From the sequence record SRR20825010_2901: 43,172 nt of DNA. One strand, written 5' to 3'. Shown one piece after another: positions 1,316 through 18,548 of the stretch. The translations under genes and the position numbers were made by a program. Under the pieces are notes generated by a model that was given only the letters and a program-made list of their open reading frames with translations, was not told where the DNA came from and searched no databases. Every line of letters starts with the position of its first letter. The stretch's first letter is position 1.

Positions 1316-2542
1316 TCAATACGGACTTGGTCCTTTTAAGAAAATCTCAGCAAAAGCAAAAGACAAAACGGCCACCACGAAACCAAACATGAAAATGGTG
1401 TAGGAAATGCGTAGCATTTTATACTTTTTGCCCAGCACCGTGCCCAGAAAATAGATGTCGCGGATCAGACTGGTGTAGAGGTAGTCCGCATCCTTCATCA
1501 TTTCCTTCATGCCCCATTCGTATTTTTCCATGTCCATATTGTGGAAATTTCCAAAGAACAGTAGGTTGGTGCGTTTGCTCAAAATGTCTTCCTCTGTGAA
1601 GGTCCCCTTAGAAATATTTGGCCTTGTGGCCAGGATGGCAAAAACGATGGTAGTAAGGCACACGGCCGTCATGATGACAGAGGGAATCACGAGGTGTGGG
1701 TACTCTTCCAGTTTTCTAAAAAGGACAGTGATCAACACTGACAGGATAATGGAGTTCACCGAAATCATGATATTGGCCTTGGTGTCGGCCATGGAGCTGA
1801 GATCCAGATGGTTTTTAGACGTCAAGCGAAACATGGTCTCCACACCGCGCGTCGGGGTGATTTCCTTTGCTGCTTTTACCTTTAGTTTCAGCTTTTCTAC
1901 CTGCGCTTCCAGCTCCAATACCTTATCCTTTTTAGCACTCATTTTCTTTAGCTTCTTTTTTATTTTCTTCAGGTTCTTCATCTTCTTTTCACGGTACGCC
2001 TGCCGCGCATACTCCGTGAAAAACACATGATTTTCAATAAAATCGGCATTCCCTTTCAACCAAGCTTCATCCGGTATCTCCACCCCTTTCATCCGTCCCA
2101 TCTCAAGGTGTAGCAATTCCGATTTGCTGAAATAGTCCTCATACGCCAAATGAATCATATCGGCATCACAGAGTATTTCCTCCAAACTATTTTTGGGCGA
2201 TTGTGGCATTTTGGTGGCTCGGATGCAGCCCGCCACACGGGCAATTTTCGCTGCGTCGTAGTTGCGTTTAGTGAGGTAGTCCTCCGCCATGTGTACACTC
2301 ACTTCTTCATGGCCCTCGGTCTTCTCGCTATAACCCAAATCATGAAACCAGGCGGCCAGTTCTACGATCTCTAATTCCTCTTCGGACACCTTGCAGCCCT
2401 CAGCAATTTCGACTGCCGCACGCACCACATCAAATGTATGTGTGCCGCAATGGTAAGTCAAATCCGGAGACACGTGATTTCGTAGAATCTCTTCAGCAAA
2501 CTGCTGTGCCCCCATTACCAGTTCCGACTTCTCTTTGGCCAT
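1316..2542 (-). CDS. HD-domain phosphohydrolase fused to a Pycsar effector (PycTM/DUF5706-like) membrane domain
   Basis: HD motifs YHxxxHT, AAWFHDLG, HEE and CDAD; a basic coiled linker; C-terminal 'RGVETMFR..NH..LS..ADTKA' followed by 3 hydrophobic helices and 'KKYKMLR'. Confidence 0.85.
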   Translation of the reverse strand: MAKEKSELVMGAQQFAEEILRNHVSPDLTYHCGTHTFDVVRAAVEIAEGCKVSEEELEIVELAAWFHDLGYSEKTEGHEEVSVHMAEDYLTKRNYDAAKIARVAGCIRATKMPQSPKNSLEEILCDADMIHLAYEDYFSKSELLHLEMGRMKGVEIPDEAWLKGNADFIENHVFFTEYARQAYREKKMKNLKKIKKKLKKMSAKKDKVLELEAQVEKLKLKVKAAKEITPTRGVETMFRLTSKNHLDLSSMADTKANIMISVNSIILSVLITVLFRKLEEYPHLVIPSVIMTAVCLTTIVFAILATRPNISKGTFTEEDILSKRTNLLFFGNFHNMDMEKYEWGMKEMMKDADYLYTSLIRDIYFLGTVLGKKYKMLRISYTIFMFGFVVAVLSFAFAEIFLKGPSPY

Positions 2543-2619
2543 TTCTATTGATTTACCTTTAGGGTTTGAAAATACAACAATTTACCCGCATCGTGGGCGA
2601 ATAAACCTAATTTTAGGAC

Positions 2620-3558
2620 GTGAATTCCAATAACGAAAGAAGAACCTGTTTAATGCCCCTTTTTATAGCACTCTTTTGTGGGCTGACCACTTTGTACTCC
2701 GTGGGCTGCACCACGGGCTCTTTCCGGGAGCGCGCCGACAGTCTTTTTTTGATCACCGACCATGTTCGGTACTATTACGATCTCAAAAGTCCAGATGAGA
2801 AACATTTTTTGCCTTATGCCCTCGCTGAAGTTAGTGGATTGACCCACCTCCGAGGCTCGCGGATTTTATGTGTGGAAGATGAACGGGGCAAGGTGTATGA
2901 ATACGACTTGAAAACCAGAAAAATTGTAAACGCCATCACATTTGAAGGTTCCGGCGATTTTGAAGGAGTGGAATATGTGAACGATACCGTGTATGTGCTC
3001 GAAAGTGACGGGGACATTTATGCCTTTGCCTACACCACAGAAAACAGCACACGGCCTATTAAGTATGAAAACAAACTGGCTATAAAGAACGATACCGAAG
3101 GACTGGGGTACAATCCCCTATCGGGAAATTTATTGATCTCCTGCAAAGAAGAAGAGGACATCAAGGGTGTAGATGCCAAAGGAAAAACGGTGTATGAATT
3201 TGACCTAGGCACAAAGGAACTGATCGAAACGCCATTCTTTGAAATCACCATTAAAAAGATGGAAGCCTTCTTCGAAGCGAATCGGGATTTCGATTATGAA
3301 ACCGAACGAATCAAGTTTAAACCTTCCGGGATCGCCTTCAATCCATTGGACAACTATTTCTACCTGCTGGCATCCGTCGGCAAGCTGATGATTGTGATCG
3401 ATGCAAAGGGAACCATAATGGCCACCTACCCCATCGCGCCGGGAATTCTCGGCCAACCGGAAGGTTTGTTTTTCGACCCAAAGGGAAATCTTTACATCAG
3501 TTCGGAAGGCGAAGGAGACAAGGGATACATCATAAAATTTAGCGCAAGAGAAAAATGA
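2620..3558 (+). CDS. SdiA-regulated/YjiK-like beta-propeller, probably exported or a lipoprotein (start GTG 2620 or ATG 2653)
   Basis: Repeated blade motifs EVSGL, DFEGV, DTEGL, KPSGI and QPEGL, plus 'LYISSEG'. Hydrophobic N-terminus ending SVG-C. ATGA overlap with the next gene. Confidence 0.75.
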   Translation: MNSNNERRTCLMPLFIALFCGLTTLYSVGCTTGSFRERADSLFLITDHVRYYYDLKSPDEKHFLPYALAEVSGLTHLRGSRILCVEDERGKVYEYDLKTRKIVNAITFEGSGDFEGVEYVNDTVYVLESDGDIYAFAYTTENSTRPIKYENKLAIKNDTEGLGYNPLSGNLLISCKEEEDIKGVDAKGKTVYEFDLGTKELIETPFFEITIKKMEAFFEANRDFDYETERIKFKPSGIAFNPLDNYFYLLASVGKLMIVIDAKGTIMATYPIAPGILGQPEGLFFDPKGNLYISSEGEGDKGYIIKFSAREK

Positions 3559-6500
3559 GGAGACTTTTACTGATAAGCCAACTATTTCTGCTTGGCCTAA
3601 ATAGCGTTTTCGCGCAGGACGTCACCGTTTATGCCATCGGCGATGCAGGTGCACCACACGCCCCGATAGATGCCACCCTCGACTACCTCAGGGAAATTTC
3701 CGGCAAGGGAAACACGCAGGACGTCCTCCTTTTCCTGGGCGATGACTTGTACCCACAAGGACTGCCAGACAAAGAAGCCCCTAACCGCAAGGAAATGGAA
3801 GCTGCGCTGGACAAATCATTGGAGATTATGAAAGCGTTTAAGGGCACAGCCATCATGGTGCCGGGAAATCACGACTGGGCCAATGGCCGAAAAGCAGGAT
3901 GGAAGCAGGTGATCAATATGCAGGAATATGTGGATGCCTACATGGGCGCACCTACTGTTTTCCTGCCGCGAGGTGGCTGCCCCGGTCCCGTAGAAATAGA
4001 GATCAGCCCGGAAATATTGCTACTTATCATGGACACCCAATACCTGCTACACCCGTGGGAAAAACCCGATCAGGAAGATGGATGCGAAGCACAATCCAGT
4101 GCAGATGCCATCGCCCTTTTGGATGATCTCTTAGGTAGAAATAAAGACAGACATGTGATTGTCGCTGGGCACCACCCTATGTATTCCTACGGCCCGCATG
4201 GTGGCAAACACACATTAAAGCAACACGTTTTTCCCCTTACAGATGTCAACCGCAAACTGTGGATTCCGCTTCCGGTCATCGGTAGTATTTATCCCTTGTT
4301 TAAGTCTGTTTTTGGCAGCCGGCAGGACATCACCAATCCACGCTACAAACAAATCCGCAATGCGATGGTGAAGTCATTCGGTCAAGTGGATCACCTGGTT
4401 TATCTGAGTGGTCACGAACATTCGCTCCAATACATTCAGCGTGATTCCGCCCATTACATCGTCAGTGGAGCGGGCACCAAGTCTTCGAATGTCAAAGCGG
4501 GAAAGGGCACTCAATTTTTTAAAGAGACAAAAGGTTTTGCCAGCTTGACCTATTCGGGAAATCAGCCAGTAAACCTGAAGTTTTACGATGGAGACGCCCA
4601 GAAAACGATTTACGACAACAGCATTTTTACTAAGGAATTAAGAACTCAGCAATCAAGTACCGGTCAATCAGCCATTGCAAAAAGTACCATCCTCGCCCCG
4701 ATCAGCGATCGTTACGTACATCCCGATTCCCGCAACCGCACCTATTGGCTTGGCGGAAATTACCGGGAAGTGTGGGCCACCCCAGTTGAAATGCGGGTTT
4801 TTGACCTTGACAAAGAACAAGGAGGGCTGGAGATTCTGAAACTCGGTGGAGGCAATCAAACCAAATCCCTTCGACTGGAAGCCAAAGACGGTCGTCAATA
4901 TGTGCTACGCTCGCTAGACAAATACACCGATAAATTGTTGCCCGCCCCGCTCCAGCATACCCTGGCATCCGACATCCTGCAAGATCAGATCTCGGCAGCC
5001 AATCCTTTTGGGGCTTTTGCCATCCCTCCGCTTGCCGATGCAGCGGGCATCTATCACACCAATCCCGAATTGGTCTTCATTCCTGATGATCCACGTTTCG
5101 GGAGATATCAAGGGATTTTTGCCAACCTGCCAGTCGTTTTCGAAGAGCGCCCAACCACGGAAATGGCCGAAGAATCCTTTTTCGGAAACGGAGAAAAGAT
5201 AGCCGGAACACCCGACGTGATTGAAACAATTCAAAAAGATAACGATGAAACGGTGGATCAGCCCTTCGCCTTGCGCAACCGCCTTTTCGACATGGTCATT
5301 GGCGATTGGGATCGCCATGAGGATCAATGGAGATGGGTGCGCACCGACAAGGAACCTGGTGGTCATCTCTGGCGACCCATTCCCCGCGACCGGGATCAGG
5401 CCTTTTTTGTGAATGAAGGACTCTTTGGTTGGGTGGCATCCAGAAAATACGCTTTGCCCAACACCGAAGGATTTGATGAATACATGAATTACCCTCCGGG
5501 GTTCAACAAAAGTGGACGATTTTTTGACCGCACGTTTCTAAACGAACTGGACTGGAGCGACTGGAAAACACAGATCGAAGACCTTCAGAATAAGTTATCT
5601 GATGAAGCCGTGGCAGCTGCCTTTAAAGTCTGGCCGGATACGATTCAGCGACAGGTAGCCGATGAAACAGCCAGGGTGCTGAAAGCCCGGCGCAACGATA
5701 TGCTGCGCTTTGCTCGTATCCATTATCTATTTCTTTCCAAAGAAGTGGAAATCGTTGGATCGAACAAACACGAATATTTTCTGGTAGAGCGCTACAGCGA
5801 CTTAGAAACCAAAGTGACCGTCTACAAACGGAAAAAAGACGGAGAGCTGGAACAGATCATTTACCAGCGCACATTCTTAAATGAAGAAACTGAAGAAATC
5901 AGACTGTTTGGACTGGAAGGGGAAGATGTCTTTGACATAGAAGGTCAGGTTTCCAAAGGAATCCGGGTAAGGATTATTGGAGGTGAAGATGAAGATGTAA
6001 TCACCGATCACTCGAAGGTGAAAGGATTAGGAAAGAAAACAGTAGTGTACGACTTGACCAATAACACCACACTATCGTCTTCCTCCGAAACCAAATCACG
6101 ATTGAGCAACAGCTCCGAAATTAACTCTTATAACCGGACAGCCTTTGAATACGATAATTTCATGCCTCTGGTAAGTTTTCAGTTTAACCCGGACGATGGG
6201 CTATTTCTGGGAGCGGGTTTCACCTTCACCAAGGAGGGCTGGCGCAAAGATCCTTTTGCATACCAACACAGTTTGAAAGCCAATGCGGCATTGGAAACAG
6301 GTGCGATAAATCTTTATTACGAAGGAACCTTAACCGATGTAATCGGGAAATGGGATTTACATGCAGATGTGACCGTGCAGCGACCGTATGGAGTTGCCAA
6401 TTTCTTTGGTATGGGCAATGAGTCCACCTACGATTATAAAGGAAAGGGAGAATCTGGAAACTTCGAAGATGAAATCGACTACTACCGCATTCGTTACGAA

Positions 6501-7223
6501 CGCATCCAGGCCTATATCAATCTCACCTACAATCTGGGTCAAAAAGGTTTGCTGAGAATCGGGCCAGAGCTGCTTACTTTCGAACTGGGCGAAGAAGTGA
6601 CTAACAAATACATCAACGACCCGACCAACGGACTAGACCCAGCTACGCTTTACAACAGTCATCAGTACATCGGTTTCAAAACAGAAATTCAGGCAGACAC
6701 ACGGGATCACCCAAATCTTCCGTCGCAAGGTGTTTTCGCCAAAATGGCTTACGCCAATTACCATTCGGTGAGTAACACGTCCAAAGATTTTGCAACATTA
6801 AGTGGTGAATTTCAATTCTTGTTATCCACCCGCATCCCGTCCAGACTGACGATGGCCAATAAAATTGGCGCACAGTACAATCTGGGTGATGTGACCTACT
6901 TCAACGGTGCGTATCTGGGAAAAGAAACCATTCGTGGCTACAGACGCACCCGGTTTATTGGAGATGCATCGCTCTATCACAATCTGGATTTGCGGCTTCA
7001 CCTCTTTTCATTCAAGACGTATCTACTTCCTGCTGGTGTAGGCCTCATTGCCTTTCATGATGTGGGTCGGGTTTGGCTGGATGGCGAAAAGTCAAGTAGC
7101 TGGCACGCAAGCAAAGGATTTGGTCTTTGGCTGGCACCACTAAACCAGTTTGTATTTGCATTTAATCTGTCATTTACGGATGAAGAGACTTTGCCAACGG
7201 TAACTTTTGGCTATCAGTTTTAG
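3555..7223 (+). CDS. Outer-membrane Omp85/BamA-TamA-like barrel protein with an N-terminal calcineurin-like metallophosphoesterase and a central kinase-like domain
   Basis: Signal peptide (VFA-Q). Metallophosphoesterase motifs IGDAG, GDDLY, PGNHDW, GHHP and GHEH. Central 'GGGNQTKS...DWDRHEDQW...DRDQAF'. C-terminal amphipathic strands with IRGY, FHDVGRVW and terminal Phe. Confidence 0.85.
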   Translation: MRRLLLISQLFLLGLNSVFAQDVTVYAIGDAGAPHAPIDATLDYLREISGKGNTQDVLLFLGDDLYPQGLPDKEAPNRKEMEAALDKSLEIMKAFKGTAIMVPGNHDWANGRKAGWKQVINMQEYVDAYMGAPTVFLPRGGCPGPVEIEISPEILLLIMDTQYLLHPWEKPDQEDGCEAQSSADAIALLDDLLGRNKDRHVIVAGHHPMYSYGPHGGKHTLKQHVFPLTDVNRKLWIPLPVIGSIYPLFKSVFGSRQDITNPRYKQIRNAMVKSFGQVDHLVYLSGHEHSLQYIQRDSAHYIVSGAGTKSSNVKAGKGTQFFKETKGFASLTYSGNQPVNLKFYDGDAQKTIYDNSIFTKELRTQQSSTGQSAIAKSTILAPISDRYVHPDSRNRTYWLGGNYREVWATPVEMRVFDLDKEQGGLEILKLGGGNQTKSLRLEAKDGRQYVLRSLDKYTDKLLPAPLQHTLASDILQDQISAANPFGAFAIPPLADAAGIYHTNPELVFIPDDPRFGRYQGIFANLPVVFEERPTTEMAEESFFGNGEKIAGTPDVIETIQKDNDETVDQPFALRNRLFDMVIGDWDRHEDQWRWVRTDKEPGGHLWRPIPRDRDQAFFVNEGLFGWVASRKYALPNTEGFDEYMNYPPGFNKSGRFFDRTFLNELDWSDWKTQIEDLQNKLSDEAVAAAFKVWPDTIQRQVADETARVLKARRNDMLRFARIHYLFLSKEVEIVGSNKHEYFLVERYSDLETKVTVYKRKKDGELEQIIYQRTFLNEETEEIRLFGLEGEDVFDIEGQVSKGIRVRIIGGEDEDVITDHSKVKGLGKKTVVYDLTNNTTLSSSSETKSRLSNSSEINSYNRTAFEYDNFMPLVSFQFNPDDGLFLGAGFTFTKEGWRKDPFAYQHSLKANAALETGAINLYYEGTLTDVIGKWDLHADVTVQRPYGVANFFGMGNESTYDYKGKGESGNFEDEIDYYRIRYERIQAYINLTYNLGQKGLLRIGPELLTFELGEEVTNKYINDPTNGLDPATLYNSHQYIGFKTEIQADTRDHPNLPSQGVFAKMAYANYHSVSNTSKDFATLSGEFQFLLSTRIPSRLTMANKIGAQYNLGDVTYFNGAYLGKETIRGYRRTRFIGDASLYHNLDLRLHLFSFKTYLLPAGVGLIAFHDVGRVWLDGEKSSSWHASKGFGLWLAPLNQFVFAFNLSFTDEETLPTVTFGYQF

Positions 7224-8313
7224 GCTGTTTTTCGCCTTTGTGAACGGCATAGATGTCGGAGAATTCTTCTTTACCTGTCACCTTCACCGTGTCTACTTTC
7301 ACAAGCTCCAAATTGGAACCATCGGTATTCATAATCAGATTGGTGACGAGCAGCTTCTCTTTATACACCTTGCAAAGCTTCTGCACACGGGCAGCTGTGT
7401 TCAGCACATCTCCATGATAGGCAAGCTCACTTTTGATGTCGCCGACTTCCGCTACGGTCACTTTTCCAGCATTGATGGCCGCATAGAAATTGGGGGTGAG
7501 CCCGTATTTGTCTTGATAATACGCGTTCTTCGATTGCAATAACGTCTCAAATGCAAAGAATAAGTTAAGACTATTGAGGTCCTCCTCCCCTTCGGCACAT
7601 TTCCAGGTGAGCACGGCTTCATCGCCCACAAATTGATAAACAGACGCCCGATACCTAAGCAAGAGATCAGACAGATCGTGGAAACAATCCTGCAGCAATA
7701 AACTAAACTTCAGATGCCCGAGTTTCTCGGCAATGTGCGTAGACGACTGCAGATCAAGAAACATAAAAATTCGATCCTCCTCACGTGGATGAAAGTATTT
7801 CCCACTCAGCAAATTGCTCACCGATCCCGGCCCCATGCGCTGATTGATGCGGATGAAAAAATCCATAAGGGCACTGATCGCCAGCAGATAAATAAAGGAA
7901 GAGAAAAATGACGAAGAACCCAGATAGAGTAATAACCTACTCAACACCTCATTGCCGTAGATCGTTTCTTCCTCATAATAGATGAAAGCACCCAGCACAT
8001 TAGTCAAAAACACAATGCCGATAAACACCACCGTACGAAGCAAAATACCATATCCAAAGGAATGCTGCCTGACAGTGTTAGGGTAAACAAATATTTCCAA
8101 AACACCCATGATACTACCTATCAGCACACCCATGAGTGTAGCCAAACCAAAGAGGCTATGGATATCCGATAGTTTCGTCAGTGCTCCCGGTTCCGGATTG
8201 GCCGCATTGCCATAGTAACGCACCACCACGTAGAGGTTGAGGGCAAAGGCCCAAAACAACACGATGAAACACACCTTTTGCAGTTTATATTTTGTGTCGG
8301 CTGAAAAGCTCAT
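7174..8313 (-). CDS. Membrane-anchored class III nucleotidyl (adenylate/guanylate-family) cyclase
   Basis: About 4 N-terminal TM helices. Catalytic motifs FLDLQSST, QFVGDE and GDVLNTAAR, and a C-terminal V.GK. Confidence 0.9.
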   Translation of the reverse strand: MSFSADTKYKLQKVCFIVLFWAFALNLYVVVRYYGNAANPEPGALTKLSDIHSLFGLATLMGVLIGSIMGVLEIFVYPNTVRQHSFGYGILLRTVVFIGIVFLTNVLGAFIYYEEETIYGNEVLSRLLLYLGSSSFFSSFIYLLAISALMDFFIRINQRMGPGSVSNLLSGKYFHPREEDRIFMFLDLQSSTHIAEKLGHLKFSLLLQDCFHDLSDLLLRYRASVYQFVGDEAVLTWKCAEGEEDLNSLNLFFAFETLLQSKNAYYQDKYGLTPNFYAAINAGKVTVAEVGDIKSELAYHGDVLNTAARVQKLCKVYKEKLLVTNLIMNTDGSNLELVKVDTVKVTGKEEFSDIYAVHKGEKQPKTDSQKLPLAKSLHP

Positions 8314-8512
8314 TTCGAATTTAGGGCAAAGGAGAAATCATGGTCAAAGTACGTTGATTCGATAGCAATAGCCACGCTGACCCGAAAACTATTTGCTAGA
8401 ATACGGGGAAACAGACAGAAGAGTTCAATGCACCACAATAAAACGGCAATTAGAACCTGACTTTGGGGGAGGTGATGAATAGTTAAAGGGAATAAACTTT
8501 TCAAATCAAAGT

Positions 8513-8547
8513 GCCAAAGGCCAACGGCCAAAAGCCAAAGGCCAAAA
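8513..8547. repeat. Five tandem GCCAA(A/C)(G/A) heptamers
   Basis: GCCAAAG GCCAACG GCCAAAA GCCAAAG GCCAAAA lies just past the stop of the hydroxylase gene. Same unit as in the repeats at 367 and 1237. Confidence 0.85.
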
Positions 8548-8552
8548 GCTCC

Positions 8553-9461: not shown

Positions 9462-10154
9462 ATGAATGCCAAATATACTGTGACTGTCCACTCCATTGAT
9501 GAAATCCACGAGCTGCCCGGCGGCTGGACCAATGATCGGTACAGGACCCTTCTTGAGCTAGCCGATTTTGATGGATATGCGGACATAGATGAAAACGAAT
9601 TAAAAGACTATGCCATCCTTGCCCTGCAGGACATGGATGTGGAAGATGCGGCCATGCTGGTATTGCAGTATCGCTTTGCGGGGCAATTCACCAAAGGGCA
9701 GATCCAAAACCTGGCTTTTGAGCTGATGAACGATAAACTGTGGGAAGAATATCAGGACATAAGCAAACATGAAGAAATGTACCATTGCACCGTGCTACTG
9801 AAAGCCGCCTTTCCCAGAAAATTTCCTGAAACAGATGCTGTCAAACTTAGCTTCGAGGTGCAAGCCACCGACGCGAACGGACGGGAAGCATTGGCGCAAC
9901 CCTCAAAAACATTACTTACGCGACTGCTCGCCCATGACATGGACAACCATGCTGTATTGAAGCGGCTTTTTAGCGGGCCATTGGCCGGTGGTTCGTTTCC
10001 AGAAGCCAACGCAATAATCTGGCAGTTCGAAACGATGAAACTGGAAAGCAGCAGTCACTTCACCGTTTATTCTTCGTGGTATTGGCTCAGACCCATGGAA
10101 GATGTATCCGACTTCAATGCTTCCATAAGCATGGATTCGATCTCGCCCCGGTAA
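9462..10154 (+). CDS. Hypothetical acidic soluble protein
   Basis: 230-aa ORF with an AT-rich leader and coding-like composition. No family recognised. Confidence 0.75.
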   Translation: MNAKYTVTVHSIDEIHELPGGWTNDRYRTLLELADFDGYADIDENELKDYAILALQDMDVEDAAMLVLQYRFAGQFTKGQIQNLAFELMNDKLWEEYQDISKHEEMYHCTVLLKAAFPRKFPETDAVKLSFEVQATDANGREALAQPSKTLLTRLLAHDMDNHAVLKRLFSGPLAGGSFPEANAIIWQFETMKLESSSHFTVYSSWYWLRPMEDVSDFNASISMDSISPR

Positions 10155-13481: not shown

Positions 13482-16400
13482 ATGGCGAAGAGCAATAAAT
13501 TCGGAACGTTTGGTGGAGTATTCGTTCCTTCCATTTTAACCATCCTTGGTGTAATCATGTACCTGAGGCTCCCAATGATCGTGGGAGAAGCTGGGCTTTG
13601 GGCGACCATCGGCATCATCGTGGTGGCGCATATCATATCGGTCACCACCGGGTTGAGCGTTTCATCCATAGCCACGGACAGAAAAGTAGAGGCTGGCGGC
13701 ACCTACTACATGATTTCCAGAAGTCTCGGTTTACCCATCGGTGGCACATTGGGGTTGGCACTTTTCGTTGGTCTTTCCTTTAGTGTCAGTTTATACCTGA
13801 TTGGTTTTTCAGAAAGCTTTTTGGGGTACTGGGGATTCTCTACCGAAATCAACAACATCCGGCTTACGGGAACAATCATCCTTTTGGCCGTCACCACTTT
13901 AACCTTCATCAGCACTTCGCTGGCCATTAAAACACAGTACTTTATCCTGGTAGCCATCTTACTTTCACTTGGCTCCATCTTTCTGGGCAATCACGACTAC
14001 ACGCCCGAAGCACCTGTTTTTTCCAATCCAGGCTCCACCATTCCATTGATGGTGTTGTTCGGTATATTTTTCCCTGCAGTGACCGGTTTTGAAGCCGGCG
14101 TATCCATGTCCGGCGATTTAAAGGATCCGAAAAAGTCGATCCCCGGAGGATCTATAATGGCCATTGGCGTTGGATTTGTGGTTTACATTGGCCTTGCATT
14201 TTTCTTTGCCTATACGGTAAGTGGAACTGCCCTCGCCAGCGACTCTCAAGTGCTATTGAATATTTCCTGGATTCCTGAATTAGTGATCGCGGGTATCTGG
14301 GGAGCAACACTATCTTCTGCATTAGGCAGTATCCTGGGAGCACCTCGTATCCTTCAGGCCACAGCCGTCGATAAGATCAGTCCGAAAATATTTGCGGCTG
14401 GCTATGGCGCTACCAACGAGCCAAGAAACGCCCTTCTGCTCACTTTCGTGATTGCCGAGGCAGGGATTCTAATTGGGCAACTAGACGTTATCGCCCGGAT
14501 TGTTTCCATCTTTTTCATCACCACATATGGTTTTCTCAATATCAGTGCAGCATTTGAGCGATGGACGAGTGCCGACTTCCGGCCCGAATTTAAAGTTTCC
14601 GGTTGGATCAGTTTGATTGGCGCCTTAGCGTGTATACTGGTGATGATCCAGCTTGACATTGTGGCTATGATTGGTGCTATCGTGCTATTGGGACTACTCT
14701 TTTTATACCTAAAAAGAAAGGAACTAACCCTCGATTCTGGAGATGCCTGGAGTGGGGTCTGGGCGGCTCTGGTGAAAACAGGCTTGACCAATTTGATGGA
14801 GGACAAACTGCACAAAAGGAACTGGCGGCCTAACATTATCATGTTTAGCGGCAATCCTGCTACCCGCCATCACATGGTTCACATGGGAAAGGCCATTGCC
14901 GGAAAACTTGGTATTCTCTCCGCTTTTGAATTGGTAAAAAGCGAGGACAAGGTATTAGCGAAAACGGAATCCAACCTGGCCAAAGACAAAGATGCCATCG
15001 GCTATTTTCAGCGCAAACTCTACTGCCGCGACATCTATGAAGGCATGGATCAGATCGCACGGGTATACGGTTTTTCCGGAGTGGAGCCAAACACCGTGCT
15101 TATGGGCTGGAGCAAACAGCCGACCAATAAGGAAAAATTCATTGAATTAATTGGTGGGCTTTCGCAGAGTCGGTTCAACACCTTGTTTCTCAACTACAAC
15201 CACGAAAATGCATATGGATCTAGCCAAAGCATTGATATCTGGTGGGCAGGCACTGGGCGTAACCTGGCGTTCTCCATCAATCTGCTGCGACAGATCACCA
15301 ATTCGCCAATATGGAAAAAAGCGAAAGTCCGCGTTTTGATTATCAATCCGAAAAATGCAGAAGCAGAAAACATTTACAAAGCGACCAAATTGATTCTGGA
15401 TAATTTCCGTTTTGATGCCGAAATACGAATCGTGAACAATGAAATGGATCCGCTCCCGGAAAATGAGATAATCGGAGTAGAATCCGGCAGCACTGACCTG
15501 GTTATACTTGGTCTTCCGGATAAGCGATTCAGGCAACTTGACAAATACTACGAAGATGTTAATTGTATACTGGATGGCATTGGCTCGACCTTAATTGTAA
15601 ATGCCTCTGAAGATTTCGAAGACTTTGAAGTTCTCGTGAATGGCAAATCAAAAACAGGGAATCAAAAAGGCGATCCAGTAAACCTGGAATTACCGGACAT
15701 GATCCCTTCCCTTTATGAAGAGATCAATTATGACATCCGCAAAGTGGATGAAAACGGCCAAAAAGTGTTGGCTCTTTTCTTTAAAAAATCACTGCAGCCG
15801 GTATTAGAAGACAACACTTCCATACTGAAAGAGCTAGACGAGCAGCTTGACACTATCAGACAAGAGTTGGATAAAATCAAAAATACGCCCGAAAGTTACA
15901 AGCGTAAAAAGGCCATCGACCGATTAAAAAATGACGTTTATTTTAAAATCAATGCCCTGCTTAATGAGGAGTTGAAGACGATCTTACTTCCCAAACAGGC
16001 GCTCAAACTAGAGGATGGGCTCACCTGGTACCTTCAACGATTGCAGGATGATTTCAGAAAATATCCCAAACATCTGAAGATTGCTCATGACAAAGAAATT
16101 TTCAAAATAAATAAGGAGGATAGGCTTGGTCTTCGGTTGCTGAAACGCTCCAAACGATTCAAACATTTCTTTGTCGGGCAGCCCATCACTCAAAAGATAG
16201 CTTATCGGGAAGTGGCCAGATACTACCAGCTAAATACTCGTTTCGTCTTTTTAGAACATTTCTTAAGCCGATTCCTCGAAGAACGACTGGCTTTTTATAA
16301 ACGCTTGAGAAACATTACCGCGAGCATCTCCAATCAACTGGAGCTCATTGACCGGAAAATCTGGCTCGACCACACGGATTGGGAATTGACGATACTCAAT

Positions 16401-18548
16401 GAACTGGCGCTTGACGTATCTGAAGCATTGGATGAAAGCCAACAGGACCTCCTATGTAATAAAGGACGGCTACAGGTAGAATTCAGAAAGAACCTGCAAC
16501 AAATGAGCAATGACATGGGAAAAGTAGATGTAAACCATCTCATTGAAAAAAAATCCAGAAAGAGCGGGTATTACAAGGGTGTTGCTAACAAGGCGGGCAA
16601 TTTTCCGGAAGACTTTGAGCTTCGTATCAAAACCATGCTCAATATGGTAACCATGGAACTTGCTGTGAATGCTACGAAAAACAGACTGGAGGCCGTACAT
16701 GAAGAGCATAAAGAGAAAATCAGGCAGTCAATTAAATCAAACTACTTCCGCCAGCTTGATGCTGTTATCAAAACCATAGGTACCAAAAACGACAAATCGG
16801 AAAAGCAAAAATTTGATCCTGTTTTCGAAAGCGAATTGCAGGAATCCTTCGACGAGCACCATGAGCGAATGATACAACTGGTCGAAGACCTACCTGAAAG
16901 CTCAGAAGTGTATTCCATACATCAGGATCATAAGCAGCAGGAAATAGAAACTTTGTCAATACCAGTGGCCCGCATGGCAGAGCATTATGTGAAAACGCAA
17001 TACACTTCCCCTTCAGTGGAAGCATTCGATAGCCTTATTGATTTCTTAAAAAGGTCGGTGTACACTTCACAGGATATCATCAACCTCACACATTTTAATT
17101 TTGAAAACGTAAAAGACGGTAACTCGGAACTGACTCTTGAGGAAATAATTAAAGATTGCGTAACAAAATTGAAACGGGAAAAAGAATTCACTGAGGACAA
17201 AATCAGACAATATGAATCGCTGATTGGAGGCCAGTTTGACAAAATCTTCGAACCCCTTCACATTATGCGCATTGAAGAAAGTGCTGGTGAATTTACGTCC
17301 AGTCTGCGAACCTATCAGGGTAAGCAAGTCATCACCAGCATTGGCGATGTGTTCGAGCAGGCCGGTTTGCTCTCGCAAAAATTAATCACCCGTTTGTTTT
17401 ATAGCCGCAGCGAAGGAATACTGATGGCCAAACGTCTTAATAAAGGAGAAAATGCCACTTCCATAAACAGCAAACTACTGGACCTGGTGGATCAGCTAAG
17501 CCCCAAAAAGGAAGTACTCACTTCGCTACCTCCCTACTACATTACACTCTACAATGGGAAATCAAGTATCGGTAAAGATTTTTGGGTCAAACGAAAGCAG
17601 GAAGAACAGGTATTCAGGAAGGCTTTCAAGCGTCATCAGGCGGGATTTGCTGGGGGTATTCTAGTATTAGGCGAACGCAACTCTGGTAAAACCGCATTTG
17701 CTCGTCATATGTCTCAGCAGTTTGGCAAAAGCCTAAGTGTATTTTCCGTTTTTCCTCCAGTAAATGGAACCAGCACCATGGAAGGATTCAATTCGGCCGT
17801 CTCGAAAGCAACCAAACTGCATGGCCAAACCCACGAGATCCTGGCACGAATTCCATCGGGCAGCATACTGATTATTAATGATTTAGAGCTATTTTGGGAG
17901 CGATCCCAAAATGGTTTGGCAGTAATTCACAAGTTGGAAGAACTGATGGACACATTCGCGAATCGAATCCTTTTCGTGGTGAACCTCAACCCCCACGCCT
18001 ATAAACTCATCAACGAAATGACCAGTCTTAGCGATCACTTCATCGAGGTGATAAACATGCTCGCCTTTGATGCAGAAGAACTCAAAGATCTGGTACTTAA
18101 GCGTCACCAATCAAGCGGATTGTCCTTTGGTTACGATCGAGATCAGCCTCAACTGAGCGAAGTAAAAATAGCTGGTTTATTCAATGCATATTTCGATTAC
18201 AGCGACGGAAACCCCGGAACAGCCCTGAATGGATGGCTCTCGAATATCAAAAAAGCAAGTTCCGAAGGATTGCTGATTCAAAAACCGGACGCTCCTTCTT
18301 TGGCTGTATTCAAATCCTTAAACGAAGACTGGACCATGCTACTGATCCAGTTTGTACTGCATAAACGACTGACCAAAGAAAAAATCCGCCGAATAACATC
18401 GTGGAATGAGCGTGAGGTAGAAACCCTGTTACTCGCCATGTTGCGATCGGGAATTGTTGCAGAAAAAGCCACAGGCGTGTTTCACATTGCGCCTTACGTA
18501 CTCCCATTTATGATCGAGGCATTCAAAGGAAGAGAGGTACTGGCATGA
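13482..18548 (+). CDS. SLC12/cation-chloride cotransporter-like APC permease fused to a long helical region, P-loop ATPase and winged-helix-like tail
   Basis: 'FGTFGGVFVPSILTILGVIMYLR', 'GGTYYMISRSLG', 'FFPAVTG...G.SMSGDLKDP', 'NWRPNI', 'IDIWW'. Walker A GERNSGKT at about aa 1397 and Walker B-like ILIINDLE. Confidence 0.9.
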   Translation: MAKSNKFGTFGGVFVPSILTILGVIMYLRLPMIVGEAGLWATIGIIVVAHIISVTTGLSVSSIATDRKVEAGGTYYMISRSLGLPIGGTLGLALFVGLSFSVSLYLIGFSESFLGYWGFSTEINNIRLTGTIILLAVTTLTFISTSLAIKTQYFILVAILLSLGSIFLGNHDYTPEAPVFSNPGSTIPLMVLFGIFFPAVTGFEAGVSMSGDLKDPKKSIPGGSIMAIGVGFVVYIGLAFFFAYTVSGTALASDSQVLLNISWIPELVIAGIWGATLSSALGSILGAPRILQATAVDKISPKIFAAGYGATNEPRNALLLTFVIAEAGILIGQLDVIARIVSIFFITTYGFLNISAAFERWTSADFRPEFKVSGWISLIGALACILVMIQLDIVAMIGAIVLLGLLFLYLKRKELTLDSGDAWSGVWAALVKTGLTNLMEDKLHKRNWRPNIIMFSGNPATRHHMVHMGKAIAGKLGILSAFELVKSEDKVLAKTESNLAKDKDAIGYFQRKLYCRDIYEGMDQIARVYGFSGVEPNTVLMGWSKQPTNKEKFIELIGGLSQSRFNTLFLNYNHENAYGSSQSIDIWWAGTGRNLAFSINLLRQITNSPIWKKAKVRVLIINPKNAEAENIYKATKLILDNFRFDAEIRIVNNEMDPLPENEIIGVESGSTDLVILGLPDKRFRQLDKYYEDVNCILDGIGSTLIVNASEDFEDFEVLVNGKSKTGNQKGDPVNLELPDMIPSLYEEINYDIRKVDENGQKVLALFFKKSLQPVLEDNTSILKELDEQLDTIRQELDKIKNTPESYKRKKAIDRLKNDVYFKINALLNEELKTILLPKQALKLEDGLTWYLQRLQDDFRKYPKHLKIAHDKEIFKINKEDRLGLRLLKRSKRFKHFFVGQPITQKIAYREVARYYQLNTRFVFLEHFLSRFLEERLAFYKRLRNITASISNQLELIDRKIWLDHTDWELTILNELALDVSEALDESQQDLLCNKGRLQVEFRKNLQQMSNDMGKVDVNHLIEKKSRKSGYYKGVANKAGNFPEDFELRIKTMLNMVTMELAVNATKNRLEAVHEEHKEKIRQSIKSNYFRQLDAVIKTIGTKNDKSEKQKFDPVFESELQESFDEHHERMIQLVEDLPESSEVYSIHQDHKQQEIETLSIPVARMAEHYVKTQYTSPSVEAFDSLIDFLKRSVYTSQDIINLTHFNFENVKDGNSELTLEEIIKDCVTKLKREKEFTEDKIRQYESLIGGQFDKIFEPLHIMRIEESAGEFTSSLRTYQGKQVITSIGDVFEQAGLLSQKLITRLFYSRSEGILMAKRLNKGENATSINSKLLDLVDQLSPKKEVLTSLPPYYITLYNGKSSIGKDFWVKRKQEEQVFRKAFKRHQAGFAGGILVLGERNSGKTAFARHMSQQFGKSLSVFSVFPPVNGTSTMEGFNSAVSKATKLHGQTHEILARIPSGSILIINDLELFWERSQNGLAVIHKLEELMDTFANRILFVVNLNPHAYKLINEMTSLSDHFIEVINMLAFDAEELKDLVLKRHQSSGLSFGYDRDQPQLSEVKIAGLFNAYFDYSDGNPGTALNGWLSNIKKASSEGLLIQKPDAPSLAVFKSLNEDWTMLLIQFVLHKRLTKEKIRRITSWNEREVETLLLAMLRSGIVAEKATGVFHIAPYVLPFMIEAFKGREVLA

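Follow-up and report, generated by a model that had tools for sequence, protein, structure and literature searches.

Four adjacent genes in a 43,172-nucleotide stretch of DNA from sequence record SRR20825010_2901 (hereafter the window) include one that joins an HD hydrolase to a membrane domain homologous to that of Pycsar effectors, which raises the question of whether the locus serves phage defence or some other function at the cell envelope. An earlier note, made from the sequence alone, had proposed a Pycsar-like cyclic-nucleotide circuit used either for defence or for phosphate/nucleotide sensing. The four genes recur together in many Bacteroidota and look like an inherited module for the cell envelope and phosphate handling, with a membrane part apparently borrowed from a phage-defence effector, rather than like phage defence. 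We found no published description of this module.

Layout of the locus

506-865: ParE (Pfam, 6.6e-13)
867-1271: ParD (NCBIfam, 7.9e-8, under the model's cut-off)
1268-1312, 8507-8549 and also 380-406: GCCAAAG-like heptamer arrays
1316-2542, minus strand: HD-PycTM gene (gene i), ORF of 408 aa
2543-2619: divergent intergenic region of 77 bp between the HD-PycTM and propeller genes
2620-3558, plus strand: propeller gene (gene ii), ORF of 312 aa
3555-7223, plus strand: metallophosphoesterase/Omp85 gene (gene iii), ORF of 1222 aa
7174-8313, minus strand: class III cyclase gene (gene iv), ORF of 379 aa

Open reading frames and Pfam matches agree with the four genes as first described (HD plus PycTM-type 3TM, propeller, metallophosphoesterase/Omp85 and four-TM class III cyclase), and the coordinates bear out each claimed junction: the 77-bp divergent gap, the ATGA coupling of genes ii and iii (a 4-base overlap, with the ATG of gene iii at 3555 inside the stop of gene ii) and the overlap of the convergent genes iii and iv (50 bp, 7174-7223). 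The window cyclase is convergent to, and on a separate transcript from, the rest of the module. The divergent HD-PycTM/propeller arrangement is also found at loci L001-L010, L017, L025, L036 and L043.

The block does lie between heptamer arrays and next to a toxin-antitoxin pair, which matches ParDE; the ParD ORF is probably over-extended, since the model match begins only at residue 56. The heptamer double unit, allowing up to two mismatches, was matched 9 times against 0.41 expected, a count reached in 0 of 100 shuffles. Nothing in the analysis ties the ParDE pair or the repeats to the four-gene module. The remainder of the window holds housekeeping genes (PFK, sulfite reductase and nuo genes), and among the 10 window proteins scanned with PADLOC, only the cyclase and an ORF at 9462-10154 (restriction-enzyme model, 0.0075) were matched besides HD-PycTM.

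The HD-PycTM protein

2018-2542, minus strand: HD phosphohydrolase domain, YpgQ-like (residues 1-175)
1865-2014, minus strand: Lys-rich long helix between the HD domain and the membrane part (residues 177-226)
1319-1852, minus strand: PycTM / pJV1-spdB3-type 3TM domain (residues 231-408)

Gene i matches the Pfam families PycTM (6.9e-38, residues 277-387) and HD (2.7e-7, residues 34-131), and its product is predicted to be an inner-membrane protein, modelled by AF2 at a pLDDT of 83.4. Three PADLOC PycTM models match (best 1.7e-18, positions 14-154 of a 160-position model), and the 3TM domain corresponds to an entire stand-alone PycTM effector, with about 88% of the PADLOC effector model covered. 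Its modelled helices span residues 231-277, 282-305 and 352-401, and it is the best-conserved part of the protein, with the motifs RGxETMFRxTSKNH, ATRPN and TNLLFFGNF; the linker is modelled as one helix (177-226) and is variable in sequence among homologues. Seven CBASS 2TM-effector models of PADLOC also match the membrane part (residues 242-401, 3.5e-13 to 1.8e-4), although the locus holds no CD-NTase or other CBASS gene. Relatives of the protein carry the NCBI label 'Pycsar system effector family protein'.

The membrane domain is thus shared with Pycsar and Pucsar, in which a PycC or PucC cyclase is paired with a PycTM or PucTM 3TM effector, whereas the fusion to an HD hydrolase is not. Residues H31, H35, H67, D68, H78, D126 and H131, which include the His/Asp metal ligands, are invariant across 23 homologues. 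The best fold and sequence-profile matches of the HD domain are YpgQ-type hydrolases (5dqv/5dqw, 2pq7, 2pjq and 3dto), with Foldseek target TM-scores of 0.65-0.75 for 2pq7, 2pjq and 5dqw (YpgQ) and a profile match to 3dto at 3.7e-5; class I phosphodiesterases scored lower, at 0.40-0.46. Unlike HD-PycTM, the solved YpgQ-type proteins are soluble, of about 200 aa and without a membrane domain. YpgQ acts as a pyrophosphohydrolase of (d)NTPs and depends on Mn. The PDB titles of its structures state only 'YpgQ in complex with ADP'. Because the fold is nearer to these nucleotide hydrolases than to cNMP phosphodiesterases, the role of signal 'eraser' that had been proposed for the HD domain is unproven.

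The outer-membrane protein and the propeller

3624-4589, plus strand: purple-acid-phosphatase-like metallophosphoesterase domain (about residues 24-345)
4677-5750, plus strand: unnamed middle domain (residues 375-732)
6156-7220, plus strand: Omp85-type beta-barrel (about residues 868-1222)

Gene iii encodes, in order, a signal peptide, a metallophosphoesterase, the unnamed middle domain, a beta-rich region and a 16-strand Omp85 barrel (Pfam Metallophos 2.7e-10, residues 24-222; Omp85 1.5e-6, residues 972-1214; NCBIfam Omp85_fam 7.1e-30, under its cut-off). Five phosphatase motifs show no variation across 21 homologues: GDxG (G29, D30, G32), GDxxY (G62, D63, Y66), GNHD (104-107), H206/H207 and GHxH (G286, H287, H289). 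They correspond to the full set of metal-ligand motifs of mammalian and plant purple acid phosphatases (1war, 1ute, 1qhw), down to the tyrosine of GDxxY, and the domain's profile finds the human and pig enzymes at 2e-11 to 1e-9, although in gene iii the domain forms just a portion of an outer-membrane protein of 1222 aa. The barrel matches BamA and TamA in Foldseek (8e-10 to 1e-7) and Fusobacterium BamA 9ccg by profile (4.5e-15).

Type Vd autotransporters (e.g. PlpD) consist of an enzyme passenger, a POTRA and an Omp85 barrel, the passenger being a patatin lipase. Gene iii similarly fuses an N-terminal hydrolytic domain to a C-terminal 16-strand Omp85-type barrel, but its putative passenger is purple-acid-phosphatase-like with an unnamed 360-aa domain rather than a patatin lipase, and the AF2 model predicts an all-beta region ahead of the barrel, with no evident POTRA beta-alpha-alpha-beta-beta unit.

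The middle domain matches no Pfam family, is modelled mostly at pLDDT above 90, and carries the invariant motif GDWDRHxDQW...PRDRDQ together with invariant K456, E530, D584, D586, H588, D590, D612 and D614. Its best PDB sequence match is the kinase CtkA (E 0.56, in an alignment that spans the catalytic loop), its Atlas leads are CotH and HipA (scores 0.77-0.78, below 0.8), and hhalign gave a probability of 0.2% against the window's own CotH. These values lend no statistical support to the 'kinase-like' label given earlier, and we regard the domain as possibly kinase-like.

A kinase-like domain and a phosphatase carried on one Omp85 protein could phosphorylate and dephosphorylate lipid A, other lipids or surface glycans, with HD-PycTM as inner-membrane supply or control and PAP2 taking part in some lineages. 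The alignment of the invariant DxDRHxDQ...DRD residues with the CtkA catalytic loop, the resemblance of the barrel to BamA and TamA, and PAP2 neighbours at 5 loci agree with such phospho-modification. We nevertheless consider it distinctly unlikely, given the kinase comparisons above, the lack of recurrence of lipid A or LPS genes in the neighbourhoods, and a periplasm in which no phosphate donor is known. Passages of a preprint describe the pel operon of Streptococcus intermedius, where the gene for a secreted CotH-like kinase is linked to genes for a TM protein and a VTC-like polyphosphate polymerase (bioRxiv 10.1101/2024.04.20.589940). The present linkage is similar in that an extracytoplasmic domain, possibly kinase-like, goes together genetically with a membrane protein and with an enzyme that makes polyphosphate. 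The families differ throughout (the module has PPK1, not VTC, and no significant CotH match), and the likeness, offered only as an analogy in favour of phospho-modification, is a speculative one of function.

Gene ii encodes an SdiA-regulated propeller (PF06977, 8.4e-13); its further Pfam matches, to Phytase-like and other propellers, are weak. Its Cys30 is nearly invariant in 23 homologues, which fits a lipoprotein, and the propeller is probably one.

Distribution and inheritance

Among 8000 scored sequences, 5251 were homologous to HD-PycTM at E <= 0.001, and the best 120 of these 5251 are at least 52% identical to it. A relative is encoded by 575 of the 600 pattern matches listed in genome_contigs, that is, by at least 575. 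The tree tracks taxonomy across Cytophagales, Flavobacteriales, Saprospirales, Sphingobacteriales and Ignavibacteriales, and genera group together; it requires 8 changes of order label, against a minimum of 5 and an average of 35.9 after shuffling, and none of 200 shuffles gave so low a count. No HD-PycTM was found among 50,697 phage records. Of 72,556 plasmids, 3 carry a full-length copy, all three being replicons larger than 230 kb typed as non-mobilizable.

These results bear directly on the defence framing, in which infection would lead the cyclase to make a cyclic nucleotide that activates PycTM-mediated membrane damage, with the HD and metallophosphoesterase domains acting as erasers of the signal. 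The PycTM and CBASS 2TM matches, the NCBI naming of relatives, the adjacent ParDE pair and the enrichment of cyclases beside the HD-PycTM gene (below) all speak for it. Pycsar and Pucsar, as well as CBASS, nonetheless differ from a gene that is vertically inherited across five orders, conserved in thousands of relatives and nearly universal in several orders, that sits in a non-mobile housekeeping context with no defence island, that is near-absent from plasmids and absent from phages, and that has PPK1 and an outer-membrane phosphatase/Omp85 protein as partners. Together with the character and scarcity of the linked cyclases, this makes anti-phage defence highly improbable, and the Pycsar-like framing is not supported.

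Gene neighbourhoods

Genes within 10 kb of HD-PycTM were counted at 80 genome loci. An Omp85 protein is nearby at 51 of the 80 (by ORF order, adjacent in 18 and parted only by module genes in 17), a GAF-domain protein at 36, a propeller at 22, PPK1 (polyphosphate kinase) at 19 with a median distance of 80 bp, a PAP2 phosphatase at 5 and His_Phos_1 at 4. At least one of Omp85 protein, propeller, PPK1, GAF protein and cyclase occurs at 67 of the 80 loci. All nine Saprospirales loci have no Omp85 protein, propeller, PPK1 or GAF protein nearby, and HD-PycTM is therefore able to stand alone; PPK1 was not found in the 43-kb window. Inherited gene order may account for part of the linkage in Flavobacteriaceae, where the same stretch also holds msrA, msrB and selO.

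The core of the module is HD-PycTM genetically coupled to the phosphatase/middle-domain/Omp85 protein. The lipoprotein propeller joins this core in Cytophagales, and in other lineages the core stands beside PPK1, PAP2 or histidine phosphatases, a GAF-domain protein or class III cyclases. The phosphatase domain itself is missing from the Omp85 homologues of Ignavibacteriales and some Sphingobacteriales, and in Sphingobacterium (L060) it is encoded as a separate gene.

The added neighbours (PPK1, PAP2, histidine phosphatase and GAF protein) suit the phosphate/nucleotide sensing that had been put forward as the alternative to defence. They could also belong to a phosphate-scavenging and polyphosphate set without cyclic-nucleotide control, in which the phosphatase/Omp85 protein and phytase-like propeller free external phosphate, HD-PycTM is a phosphohydrolase with the 3TM domain as a mere anchor, and the cyclase is an independent sensor gene. 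The purple-acid-phosphatase motifs, the weak phytase-like matches, the phosphatase and PPK1 neighbours and the cyclase's separate transcript and absence from most loci are consistent with this. Yet the 3TM domain is conserved beyond an anchor's needs, in Flavobacteriales a GAF-domain protein is encoded directly alongside more often than any other neighbour, Ignavibacteriales and Sphingobacteriales retain the middle-domain/Omp85 protein minus its phosphatase, pst/pho families are not prominent among the commonest neighbour clusters (16 named by Pfam), and five protein types are represented among the cyclases enriched at module flanks. We therefore think pure scavenging unlikely.

Class III cyclases linked to the module

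7234-7791, minus strand: cyclase catalytic domain (residues 175-360)

Gene iv matches Guanylate_cyc in Pfam (1.3e-6, residues 183-351, 28.6 bits against a cut-off of 21.9), with four hydrophobic helices, counted by eye, ahead of the catalytic domain. The protein has D187, D231, N305 and R309, and its Lys/Glu specificity position is occupied by Q227. The catalytic domain aligns to the photoactivated adenylyl cyclase OaPAC (2.1e-7); such enzymes are the nearest solved relatives, with no PycC match at E <= 0.01, and the PADLOC PycC model reaches only 8.5e-4 (16.8 bits).

A class III cyclase lies within 10 kb of HD-PycTM at 13 of the 80 loci and is lacking at the other 67, which counts against defence. 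The earlier note had called the cyclase's linkage its weakest part and had proposed a neighbourhood analysis of partner co-occurrence; the linkage proved recurrent, as in Pycsar and Pucsar. Cyclases occupy 11 of 178 flank slots of the module versus 2 of 698 other slots, so that 11 of 13 directly adjoin a module gene (Fisher odds ratio 23, p = 1e-6, uncorrected for the genomes' relatedness). They comprise five types (TM families A and B, cyclase-AAA-TPR, cyclase-TPR and Reg_prop-cyclase) in at least nine arrangements, and explaining their presence at 14 tips of the tree takes 11 changes. Gln stands at the Lys position in 12 of 14 module-linked cyclases, and family B lacks the catalytic Asn. The window cyclase belongs to family A, and homologues of it adjoin HD-PycTM at L033, L047, L081 and L083; among the replicons where this is seen are Fulvitalea axinellae pFA2, whose gene set matches all four of the window, and one from Persicobacter. 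In the closest relatives, Marinoscillum L001 and L004, the cyclase is of a different family and lies on the opposite flank, and the place of the window's cyclase is taken by unrelated genes. Ferruginibacter (L047) has an operon-like series of genes for propeller, Omp85 protein, HD-PycTM, PPK1 and cyclase, all read in one direction and closely spaced, with both end junctions overlapping and inner gaps of about 10 bp.

Membrane-anchored or TPR- or Reg_prop-fused cyclases of this kind are not PycC-like. Immune cyclases are, in passages of the Pucsar preprint, mainly stand-alone or STAND-fused and fast-evolving (10.64898/2026.08.12.744502), a difference in kind that also weighs against defence.

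A proposed cyclic-nucleotide-linked envelope module

The reading we favour, at roughly even odds, is that of a vertically inherited chromosomal envelope module of Bacteroidota and Ignavibacteriota, cyclic-nucleotide-linked and concerned with phosphate or polyphosphate, rather than a system of abortive infection. For the module as a whole, we infer the following working. Upon an envelope or phosphate cue, the membrane cyclase, in which Gln replaces the usual base-specifying Lys/Glu, would make a cyclic nucleotide, which may be sensed at the cytoplasmic face of an oligomeric 3TM domain in the way put forward for PycTM and PucTM. Rather than killing the cell, sensing would lead to graded gating of the 3TM assembly or of the attached HD hydrolase. 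Such gating may couple cytoplasmic phosphoanhydride metabolism (polyphosphate and nucleotides) to the phosphoester chemistry that the propeller and the phosphatase/Omp85 protein would carry out in the periplasm or at the cell surface.

Organization of the four-gene block

The four contiguous genes described in the earlier note were recovered as open reading frames, and Pfam families matched in all of them.

Genes of the block (coordinates, strand, product)
1316-2542 (-): gene i, HD-PycTM, 408 aa; Pfam PycTM 6.9e-38, HD 2.7e-7
2620-3558 (+): gene ii, propeller, 312 aa; Pfam SdiA-regulated propeller 8.4e-13
3555-7223 (+): gene iii, phosphatase/middle-domain/Omp85 protein, 1222 aa; Pfam Metallophos 2.7e-10, Omp85 1.5e-6
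7174-8313 (-): gene iv, cyclase, 379 aa; Pfam Guanylate_cyc 1.3e-6

The arrangement claimed for them is also seen in the coordinates: genes i and ii are divergent with 77 bp between them, genes ii and iii overlap by ATGA, and genes iii and iv are convergent with 50 bp shared. The SdiA-regulated (YjiK-like) propeller family, PF06977, matches residues 68-296 of gene ii with 48.5 bits, above its cut-off of 21. A scan for sigma-70 promoters and terminators returned no more matches than in shuffled sequence, and the sigma-70 consensus is unsuited to Bacteroidota.

An HD domain fused to a Pycsar-type membrane domain

The PycTM domain of gene i (PF18967) scores 129.8 bits in Pfam, where the cut-off is 27.2, and in PADLOC the protein matches three PycTM models (best 1.7e-18) as well as seven CBASS 2TM-effector models. 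Whereas the PycTM models of PADLOC span 154-165 positions, the product of gene i has 408 aa, with an HD domain at the N-terminus and then a helical linker; because it covers positions 14-154 of the 160 in the model, its C-terminal 180 residues correspond to a whole stand-alone effector. In the AF2 model (pLDDT 83.4), an all-helical HD domain at residues 1-175 is followed by a linker made of a single long Lys-rich helix (residues 177-226) and by membrane-part helices at 231-277, 282-305 and 352-401. Across 23 aligned sequences the His/Asp metal ligands of the HD domain (H...HD...D) are unchanged, and the membrane part is conserved above all other regions of the protein.

The HD domain itself scores 31.3 bits in Pfam against a cut-off of 22. 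Its closest matches in a fold search are the YpgQ-type hydrolases 2pq7, 2pjq and 5dqw (E 4e-4 to 8e-4, target TM-scores 0.65-0.75), and the sequence profile likewise places it nearest this type; class I cyclic-nucleotide phosphodiesterases appear only from rank 10, with E-values of 6e-3 and weaker and target TM-scores of 0.40-0.46. Profile and model together assign the domain, as a prediction, to a YpgQ-like branch of the HD phosphohydrolase superfamily. Relatives consisting of the HD domain without the 3TM part, annotated "HD domain-containing protein", occur on plasmids (H4-H6; Adhaeribacter swui and Chondrinema litorale), where they align to the window protein over its residues 8-184, with 33-43% coverage and 37-41% identity. 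Chondrinema also encodes an additional full-length HD-PycTM, a divergent paralogue with 31.5% identity whose surroundings are unrelated (replicon locus L082).

Distribution and inheritance of HD-PycTM

A word-seeded search found at least 5251 HD-PycTM homologues at E <= 0.001 among 8000 scored candidates. The best 120 of these 5251 share at least 52% identity, and all but one have a query coverage of at least 95%. With one genome per species, at least 575 relatives were counted (575 of the 600 pattern matches listed). In a maximum-likelihood tree of 81 proteins the order label changes eight times, against a minimum of five and a shuffled mean of 35.9, and a value as low was reached in 0 of 200 shuffles. 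Sequences of the same genus group together (e.g. Maribacter, Tenacibaculum, Polaribacter, Kordia, and Fulvivirga), and the window protein falls with Marinoscillum, at 67% identity. One homologue (P0005), encoded on a 34-kb contig, is 95% identical to it.

Mobile elements hold few copies: tblastn detected no HD-PycTM in 50,697 phage records, and full-length HD-PycTM on 3 of 72,556 plasmids; each of the three exceeds 230 kb and is classed as non-mobilizable. The remainder of the window is of a housekeeping kind: it encodes subunits of NADH dehydrogenase as well as phosphofructokinase and sulfite reductase. The HD-PycTM gene is conserved and passed on vertically, and its distribution is unlike that of defence genes because it is conserved, follows taxonomy, lies off phages and nearly off plasmids, and sits in a housekeeping context.

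Comparison with Pycsar and Pucsar systems

The main text of a 2026 preprint describes PycTM and PucTM as pJV1-spdB3-family 3TM proteins, PucTM forming a hexameric cylinder, and the immune cyclase clades as mainly stand-alone or STAND-fused and fast-evolving; that main text contains none of the terms "HD domain", "polyphosphate" and "Bacteroidota" (10.64898/2026.08.12.744502). Pycsar protects against phage by means of cCMP or cUMP that is produced upon infection. Gene i shares with Pycsar its PycTM (pJV1-spdB3 3TM) domain, and the earlier note proposed a role in Pycsar-like defence or in phosphate/nucleotide sensing. The same note had recognized that the layout departs from the two-gene system, and several differences are evident. 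Pycsar effectors are either 3TM proteins that stand alone, with a length of ~160-180 aa, or CNBD-TIR proteins, whereas gene i encodes an HD fusion. Cyclase and effector form an adjacent pair in Pycsar, whereas in the window they lie 4.6 kb apart, on different transcripts and with two genes between them. Pycsar is patchy and moves horizontally in defence islands and mobile elements, whereas HD-PycTM follows taxonomy among housekeeping genes. Given the tree, the neighbours and the scarcity of copies on phages and plasmids, we consider defence highly improbable as the function of the module. The cyclase-plus-3TM logic of Pycsar would be kept here in a setting that is non-mobile and presumably non-lethal. 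The protein families of the module are already known and annotated; in a search of openly accessible papers we found no published account of the module, of its metallophosphoesterase-Omp85 fusion, or of a PycTM branch that carries an HD domain and is inherited vertically.

Conserved gene neighbourhoods

Neighbourhoods were compared in the best 80 loci, which come from Cytophagales, Flavobacteriales, Saprospirales, Sphingobacteriales, Chitinophagales and Ignavibacteriales. A locus was counted if it had the gene no farther than 10 kb from HD-PycTM, by ORF clustering and tblastn with the window proteins.

Genes within 10 kb of HD-PycTM
Phosphatase/middle-domain/Omp85 protein: 51 of 80 loci (tblastn)
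GAF protein of ~794 aa: 36 of 80 loci, median distance 15 bp
Propeller: 22 of 80 loci
Polyphosphate kinase PPK1, with all four Pfam domains: 19 of 80 loci, median distance 80 bp
PAP2 phosphatase: 5 of 80 loci
His_Phos_1: 4 of 80 loci
DUF2652: 2 of 80 loci

Of the 80 loci, 67 contain one or more members of the set formed by Omp85 protein, propeller, PPK1, GAF protein and cyclase; the 13 loci without any module neighbour include seven of the nine from Saprospirales, and several are short contigs. By ORF order, the Omp85 protein is adjacent to HD-PycTM in 18 loci, separated from it by module genes only in 17 and by other genes in 14, and absent in 31. The most operon-like form of the module is found in Ferruginibacter (L047:5424-14339(+)), where the propeller, phosphatase/Omp85 protein, HD-PycTM, PPK1 and a cyclase of the window's type (family A) are co-directional and tightly packed. 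In the window, which reaches ~1.3 kb past the HD-PycTM gene, tblastn at 1e-3 gave no match to PPK1, the GAF protein or the second cyclase type (family B); with so short a flank, a family B cyclase may still lie past the ParE/ParD pair.

Pfam GAF was matched, weakly, in 13 of 21 members of the 794-aa family and GAF_2 in 7 of 21, while the representative scanned matched no Pfam family. The GAF protein directly adjoins HD-PycTM in 27 of 28 Flavobacteriales loci (e.g. L052:11530-13914(-), with 35 other loci holding the gene), and its C-terminal region is strongly conserved (YFERYKTDGVEHNMYIG...FRMDEKQFDVDGAYNIRYE) without a family match. In Flavobacteriaceae the same stretch often also holds msrA, msrB and selO. 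Taken together, these neighbourhoods point to a module that joins an inner-membrane HD/3TM protein, outer-membrane phosphoester enzymes, polyphosphate synthesis, and cyclic-nucleotide parts (cyclases and GAF).

The cyclase and its linkage to HD-PycTM

By its catalytic motif, gene iv is predicted to encode a class III nucleotidyl cyclase. Its Guanylate_cyc score of 28.6 bits exceeds the cut-off of 21.9, and alignment to OaPAC shows all of the class III residues, the two metal-binding Asp (D187, D231) and the transition-state Asn and Arg (N305, R309); the specificity positions, judged by eye against OaPAC, are Q227 and A, versus K/D or E/C. About four hydrophobic helices were recognized by eye at the N-terminus. 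Among solved structures it comes closest to PAC adenylyl cyclases (2e-7), and no chain of PycC matched at E <= 0.01; the PADLOC PycC model matches only at 8.5e-4 (16.8 bits).

With the window cyclase as a tblastn query, 3 of the 80 loci matched: the matches in L033 and L047 were good, that in L021 weak. A cyclase HMM was positive in 13 of the 80 loci and the window, but it was built from nine domains, so that 9 of these 14 positives are seeds matching by construction; Pfam confirmed the cyclases of L001, L016, L045 and L065, while those of L020 and L061 rest on the HMM. Their protein types are diverse: TM-anchored families A (including the window) and B, cyclase-AAA-TPR, cyclase-TPR, and Reg_prop-cyclase. 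Gln stands at the adenylyl-cyclase Lys position in 12 of the 14, the two exceptions being Saprospirales proteins with Lys. Family B (L001, L003, L004, L005, L021, L030) has GTPVIIASR in place of the class III GDxxNxAxR and so has neither the transition-state Asn nor the Asp before it, but it is well conserved.

Arrangements of the cyclase gene
L001, L004, L005: 3' of HD-PycTM, convergent
L003: same strand, upstream of PPK1
L021, L045: 3' of the Omp85 gene, convergent, like the window
L020: same strand, before propeller-Omp85
L065: divergent to HD-PycTM
L047: 3'-most gene of a packed co-directional five-gene run (propeller, Omp85 protein, HD-PycTM, PPK1, cyclase)

The claimed linkage of cyclase to HD-PycTM was supported in this comparison. 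Eleven of the 13 cyclases directly adjoin a module gene, occupying 11 of 178 module-flank slots versus 2 of 698 other ORFs (odds ratio 23; Fisher p 1e-6, a value that treats the related genomes as independent). Cyclase and HD-PycTM are directly adjacent in L001, L004, L005 and L065 and in the replicon loci L081 and L083. On a Persicobacter replicon a family A cyclase converges on the HD-PycTM gene. The Fulvitalea axinellae plasmid pFA2 is annotated with a metallophosphoesterase and a hypothetical protein and, divergent from these, a "Pycsar system effector family protein" and an "adenylate/guanylate cyclase domain-containing protein"; against the four proteins of the window, those of pFA2 show 40%, 33%, 38%, and 34% identity. 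Two observations count against the link: no cyclase lies within 10 kb of HD-PycTM in 67 of the 80 loci, and in Marinoscillum L001 and L004, which are most closely related to the window, family B is on the opposite flank and other, unrelated genes occupy the position of the window cyclase. Cyclase presence changes 11 times on the HD-PycTM tree for 14 positive tips. Phosphate scavenging with no cyclic-nucleotide control would suit the many loci without a cyclase; with cyclases concentrated at module flanks where they do occur, we regard it as unlikely.

The outer-membrane protein

Gene iii appears to combine three parts. The N-terminal domain is predicted to be a metallophosphoesterase of purple-acid-phosphatase type: its profile matches purple acid phosphatases in the PDB at 2e-11, and the motif set DxG / GDxxY / GNH(D/E) / VxxH / GHxH, including the GDxxY tyrosine, is unchanged in 21 homologues (G29, D30, G32; G62, D63, Y66; G104, N105, H106, D107; H206, H207; G286, H287, H289). 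The C-terminus is modelled as a 16-strand barrel of the Omp85 / BamA-TamA superfamily, with an Omp85 Pfam score of 28.4 bits against a cut-off of 24 and Foldseek matches to BamA and TamA at 8e-10 (AF2 model of residues 361-1222, pLDDT 87.6, pTM 0.83); NCBIfam Omp85_fam reaches 104.8 bits, under its cut-off of 200. Omp85 proteins and type Vd autotransporters carry at least one POTRA domain ahead of the barrel; here the segment just before the barrel (model residues 370-490) is all-beta, without helices, and POTRA had no Pfam match in the protein.

The phosphatase domain is separable, being encoded by a separate 367-aa gene in Sphingobacterium (L060:12021-18028). Ignavibacteriales and some Sphingobacteriales have the Omp85 protein without it, and in L019, L020, L045, L046 and L048 the middle domain and barrel are kept in a protein of about 870 aa. 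A Riemerella metallophosphoesterase was rejected as a relative, because it is described as a T9SS-secreted effector and not as an Omp85 fusion.

The middle domain (residues 375-732) also forms proteins of its own, 420-550 aa long, in Pontibacter, Mucilaginibacter and Hymenobacter. It matched no Pfam family in the scans or in the best 120 of 1266 shorter-protein matches, and a Pfam scan of 31 members gave no recurring family, one of the 31 matching PI3_PI4_kinase at 0.14. A protein-kinase-like fold of the HipA/CtkA/CotH/PI3-4-kinase branch has a DxxxxN catalytic loop and a metal-binding Asp. The invariant GDWDRHxDQW...PRDRDQ of the middle domain aligns to the catalytic-loop DRHNGN of CtkA (E 0.56), and Atlas leads to CotH and HipA stand at 0.77-0.78, within the chance range. 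Comparison by hhalign with the window's own CotH was insignificant (probability 0.2%), and the best 50 Foldseek matches of the 862-residue model were BamA/TamA-type barrels only, none for the middle domain. Because the CtkA, Atlas and hhalign matches are insignificant, "kinase-like" stays a lead only for this domain. Phospho-modification at the outer membrane, as the function of the module, would draw on that lead and on the adjoining phosphatase motifs; we hold it to be quite unlikely.

Other features of the window

Features outside the four genes (coordinates, strand, description)
380-406, 1268-1312, 8507-8549 (+): arrays of GCCAAAG-like heptamers
506-1271: ParE/ParD pair
1237-1272: 16-17-base direct repeat (AAGTCCCCTAAAAACCC, 2.2 copies)
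13482-18548 (+): 1688-aa ORF; amino-acid permease (1.5e-46) in the first 450 residues, the remaining ~1200 without Pfam annotation
26176-27708 (+): CotH kinase (Pfam 5.7e-71) with a T9SS C-terminal sorting domain

The toxin-antitoxin pair reported beside the block was identified as ParE and ParD, and the heptamer repeats reported on either side of it were recovered at 1268-1312 and 8507-8549. The ParE/ParD pair occupies the place where a family B cyclase converges on HD-PycTM in Marinoscillum L001 and L004, and it may be an insertion. The true start of ParD probably lies downstream of the TTG at 1271, because the ParD match starts only at ORF residue 56. Nine double-unit heptamer matches were counted against 0.41 expected, and arrays lie just 3' of HD-PycTM and of the fatty-acid hydroxylase gene, both on the minus strand; between these heptamer or direct repeats and the module, no link was found. 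From its sorting domain, the CotH protein is therefore probably a secreted atypical kinase.

Interpretation and significance

We judge it about an even chance that the linkage pattern reflects a housekeeping module in which phosphate and envelope functions are linked to cyclic nucleotides, a mechanism that we infer from homology and gene neighbourhood. A bolder joint reading, which we offer as a long shot and very unlikely as a whole, is that HD-PycTM might be a housekeeping form, possibly the ancestor, of the Pycsar/CBASS 3TM effector, acting as an oligomeric inner-membrane conduit that a cyclic nucleotide gates. With PPK1 as its partner, it would move polyphosphate or derived phosphoryl groups to the periplasm, where the Omp85-anchored kinase-like and purple-acid-phosphatase domains would write and erase phosphate marks on targets in the envelope, amounting to a trans-envelope phosphorylation powered by polyphosphate, not ATP.

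Phosphate handling is ecologically central to marine Bacteroidota, and the module ties a polyphosphate kinase to an outer-membrane protein whose invariant-motif domain has at least 1266 matches in shorter proteins and no Pfam family. Thousands of Bacteroidota genes are publicly annotated as "Pycsar system effector family protein"; if HD-PycTM is a core envelope/phosphate gene, censuses of the PycTM domain overcount defence in this phylum. Within a family of membrane-disrupting immune effectors, HD-PycTM presumably represents a branch that does not kill and is inherited vertically; it still lies beside cyclases, and is therefore a natural place to study 3TM sensing and the recruitment of immune effectors from housekeeping proteins.
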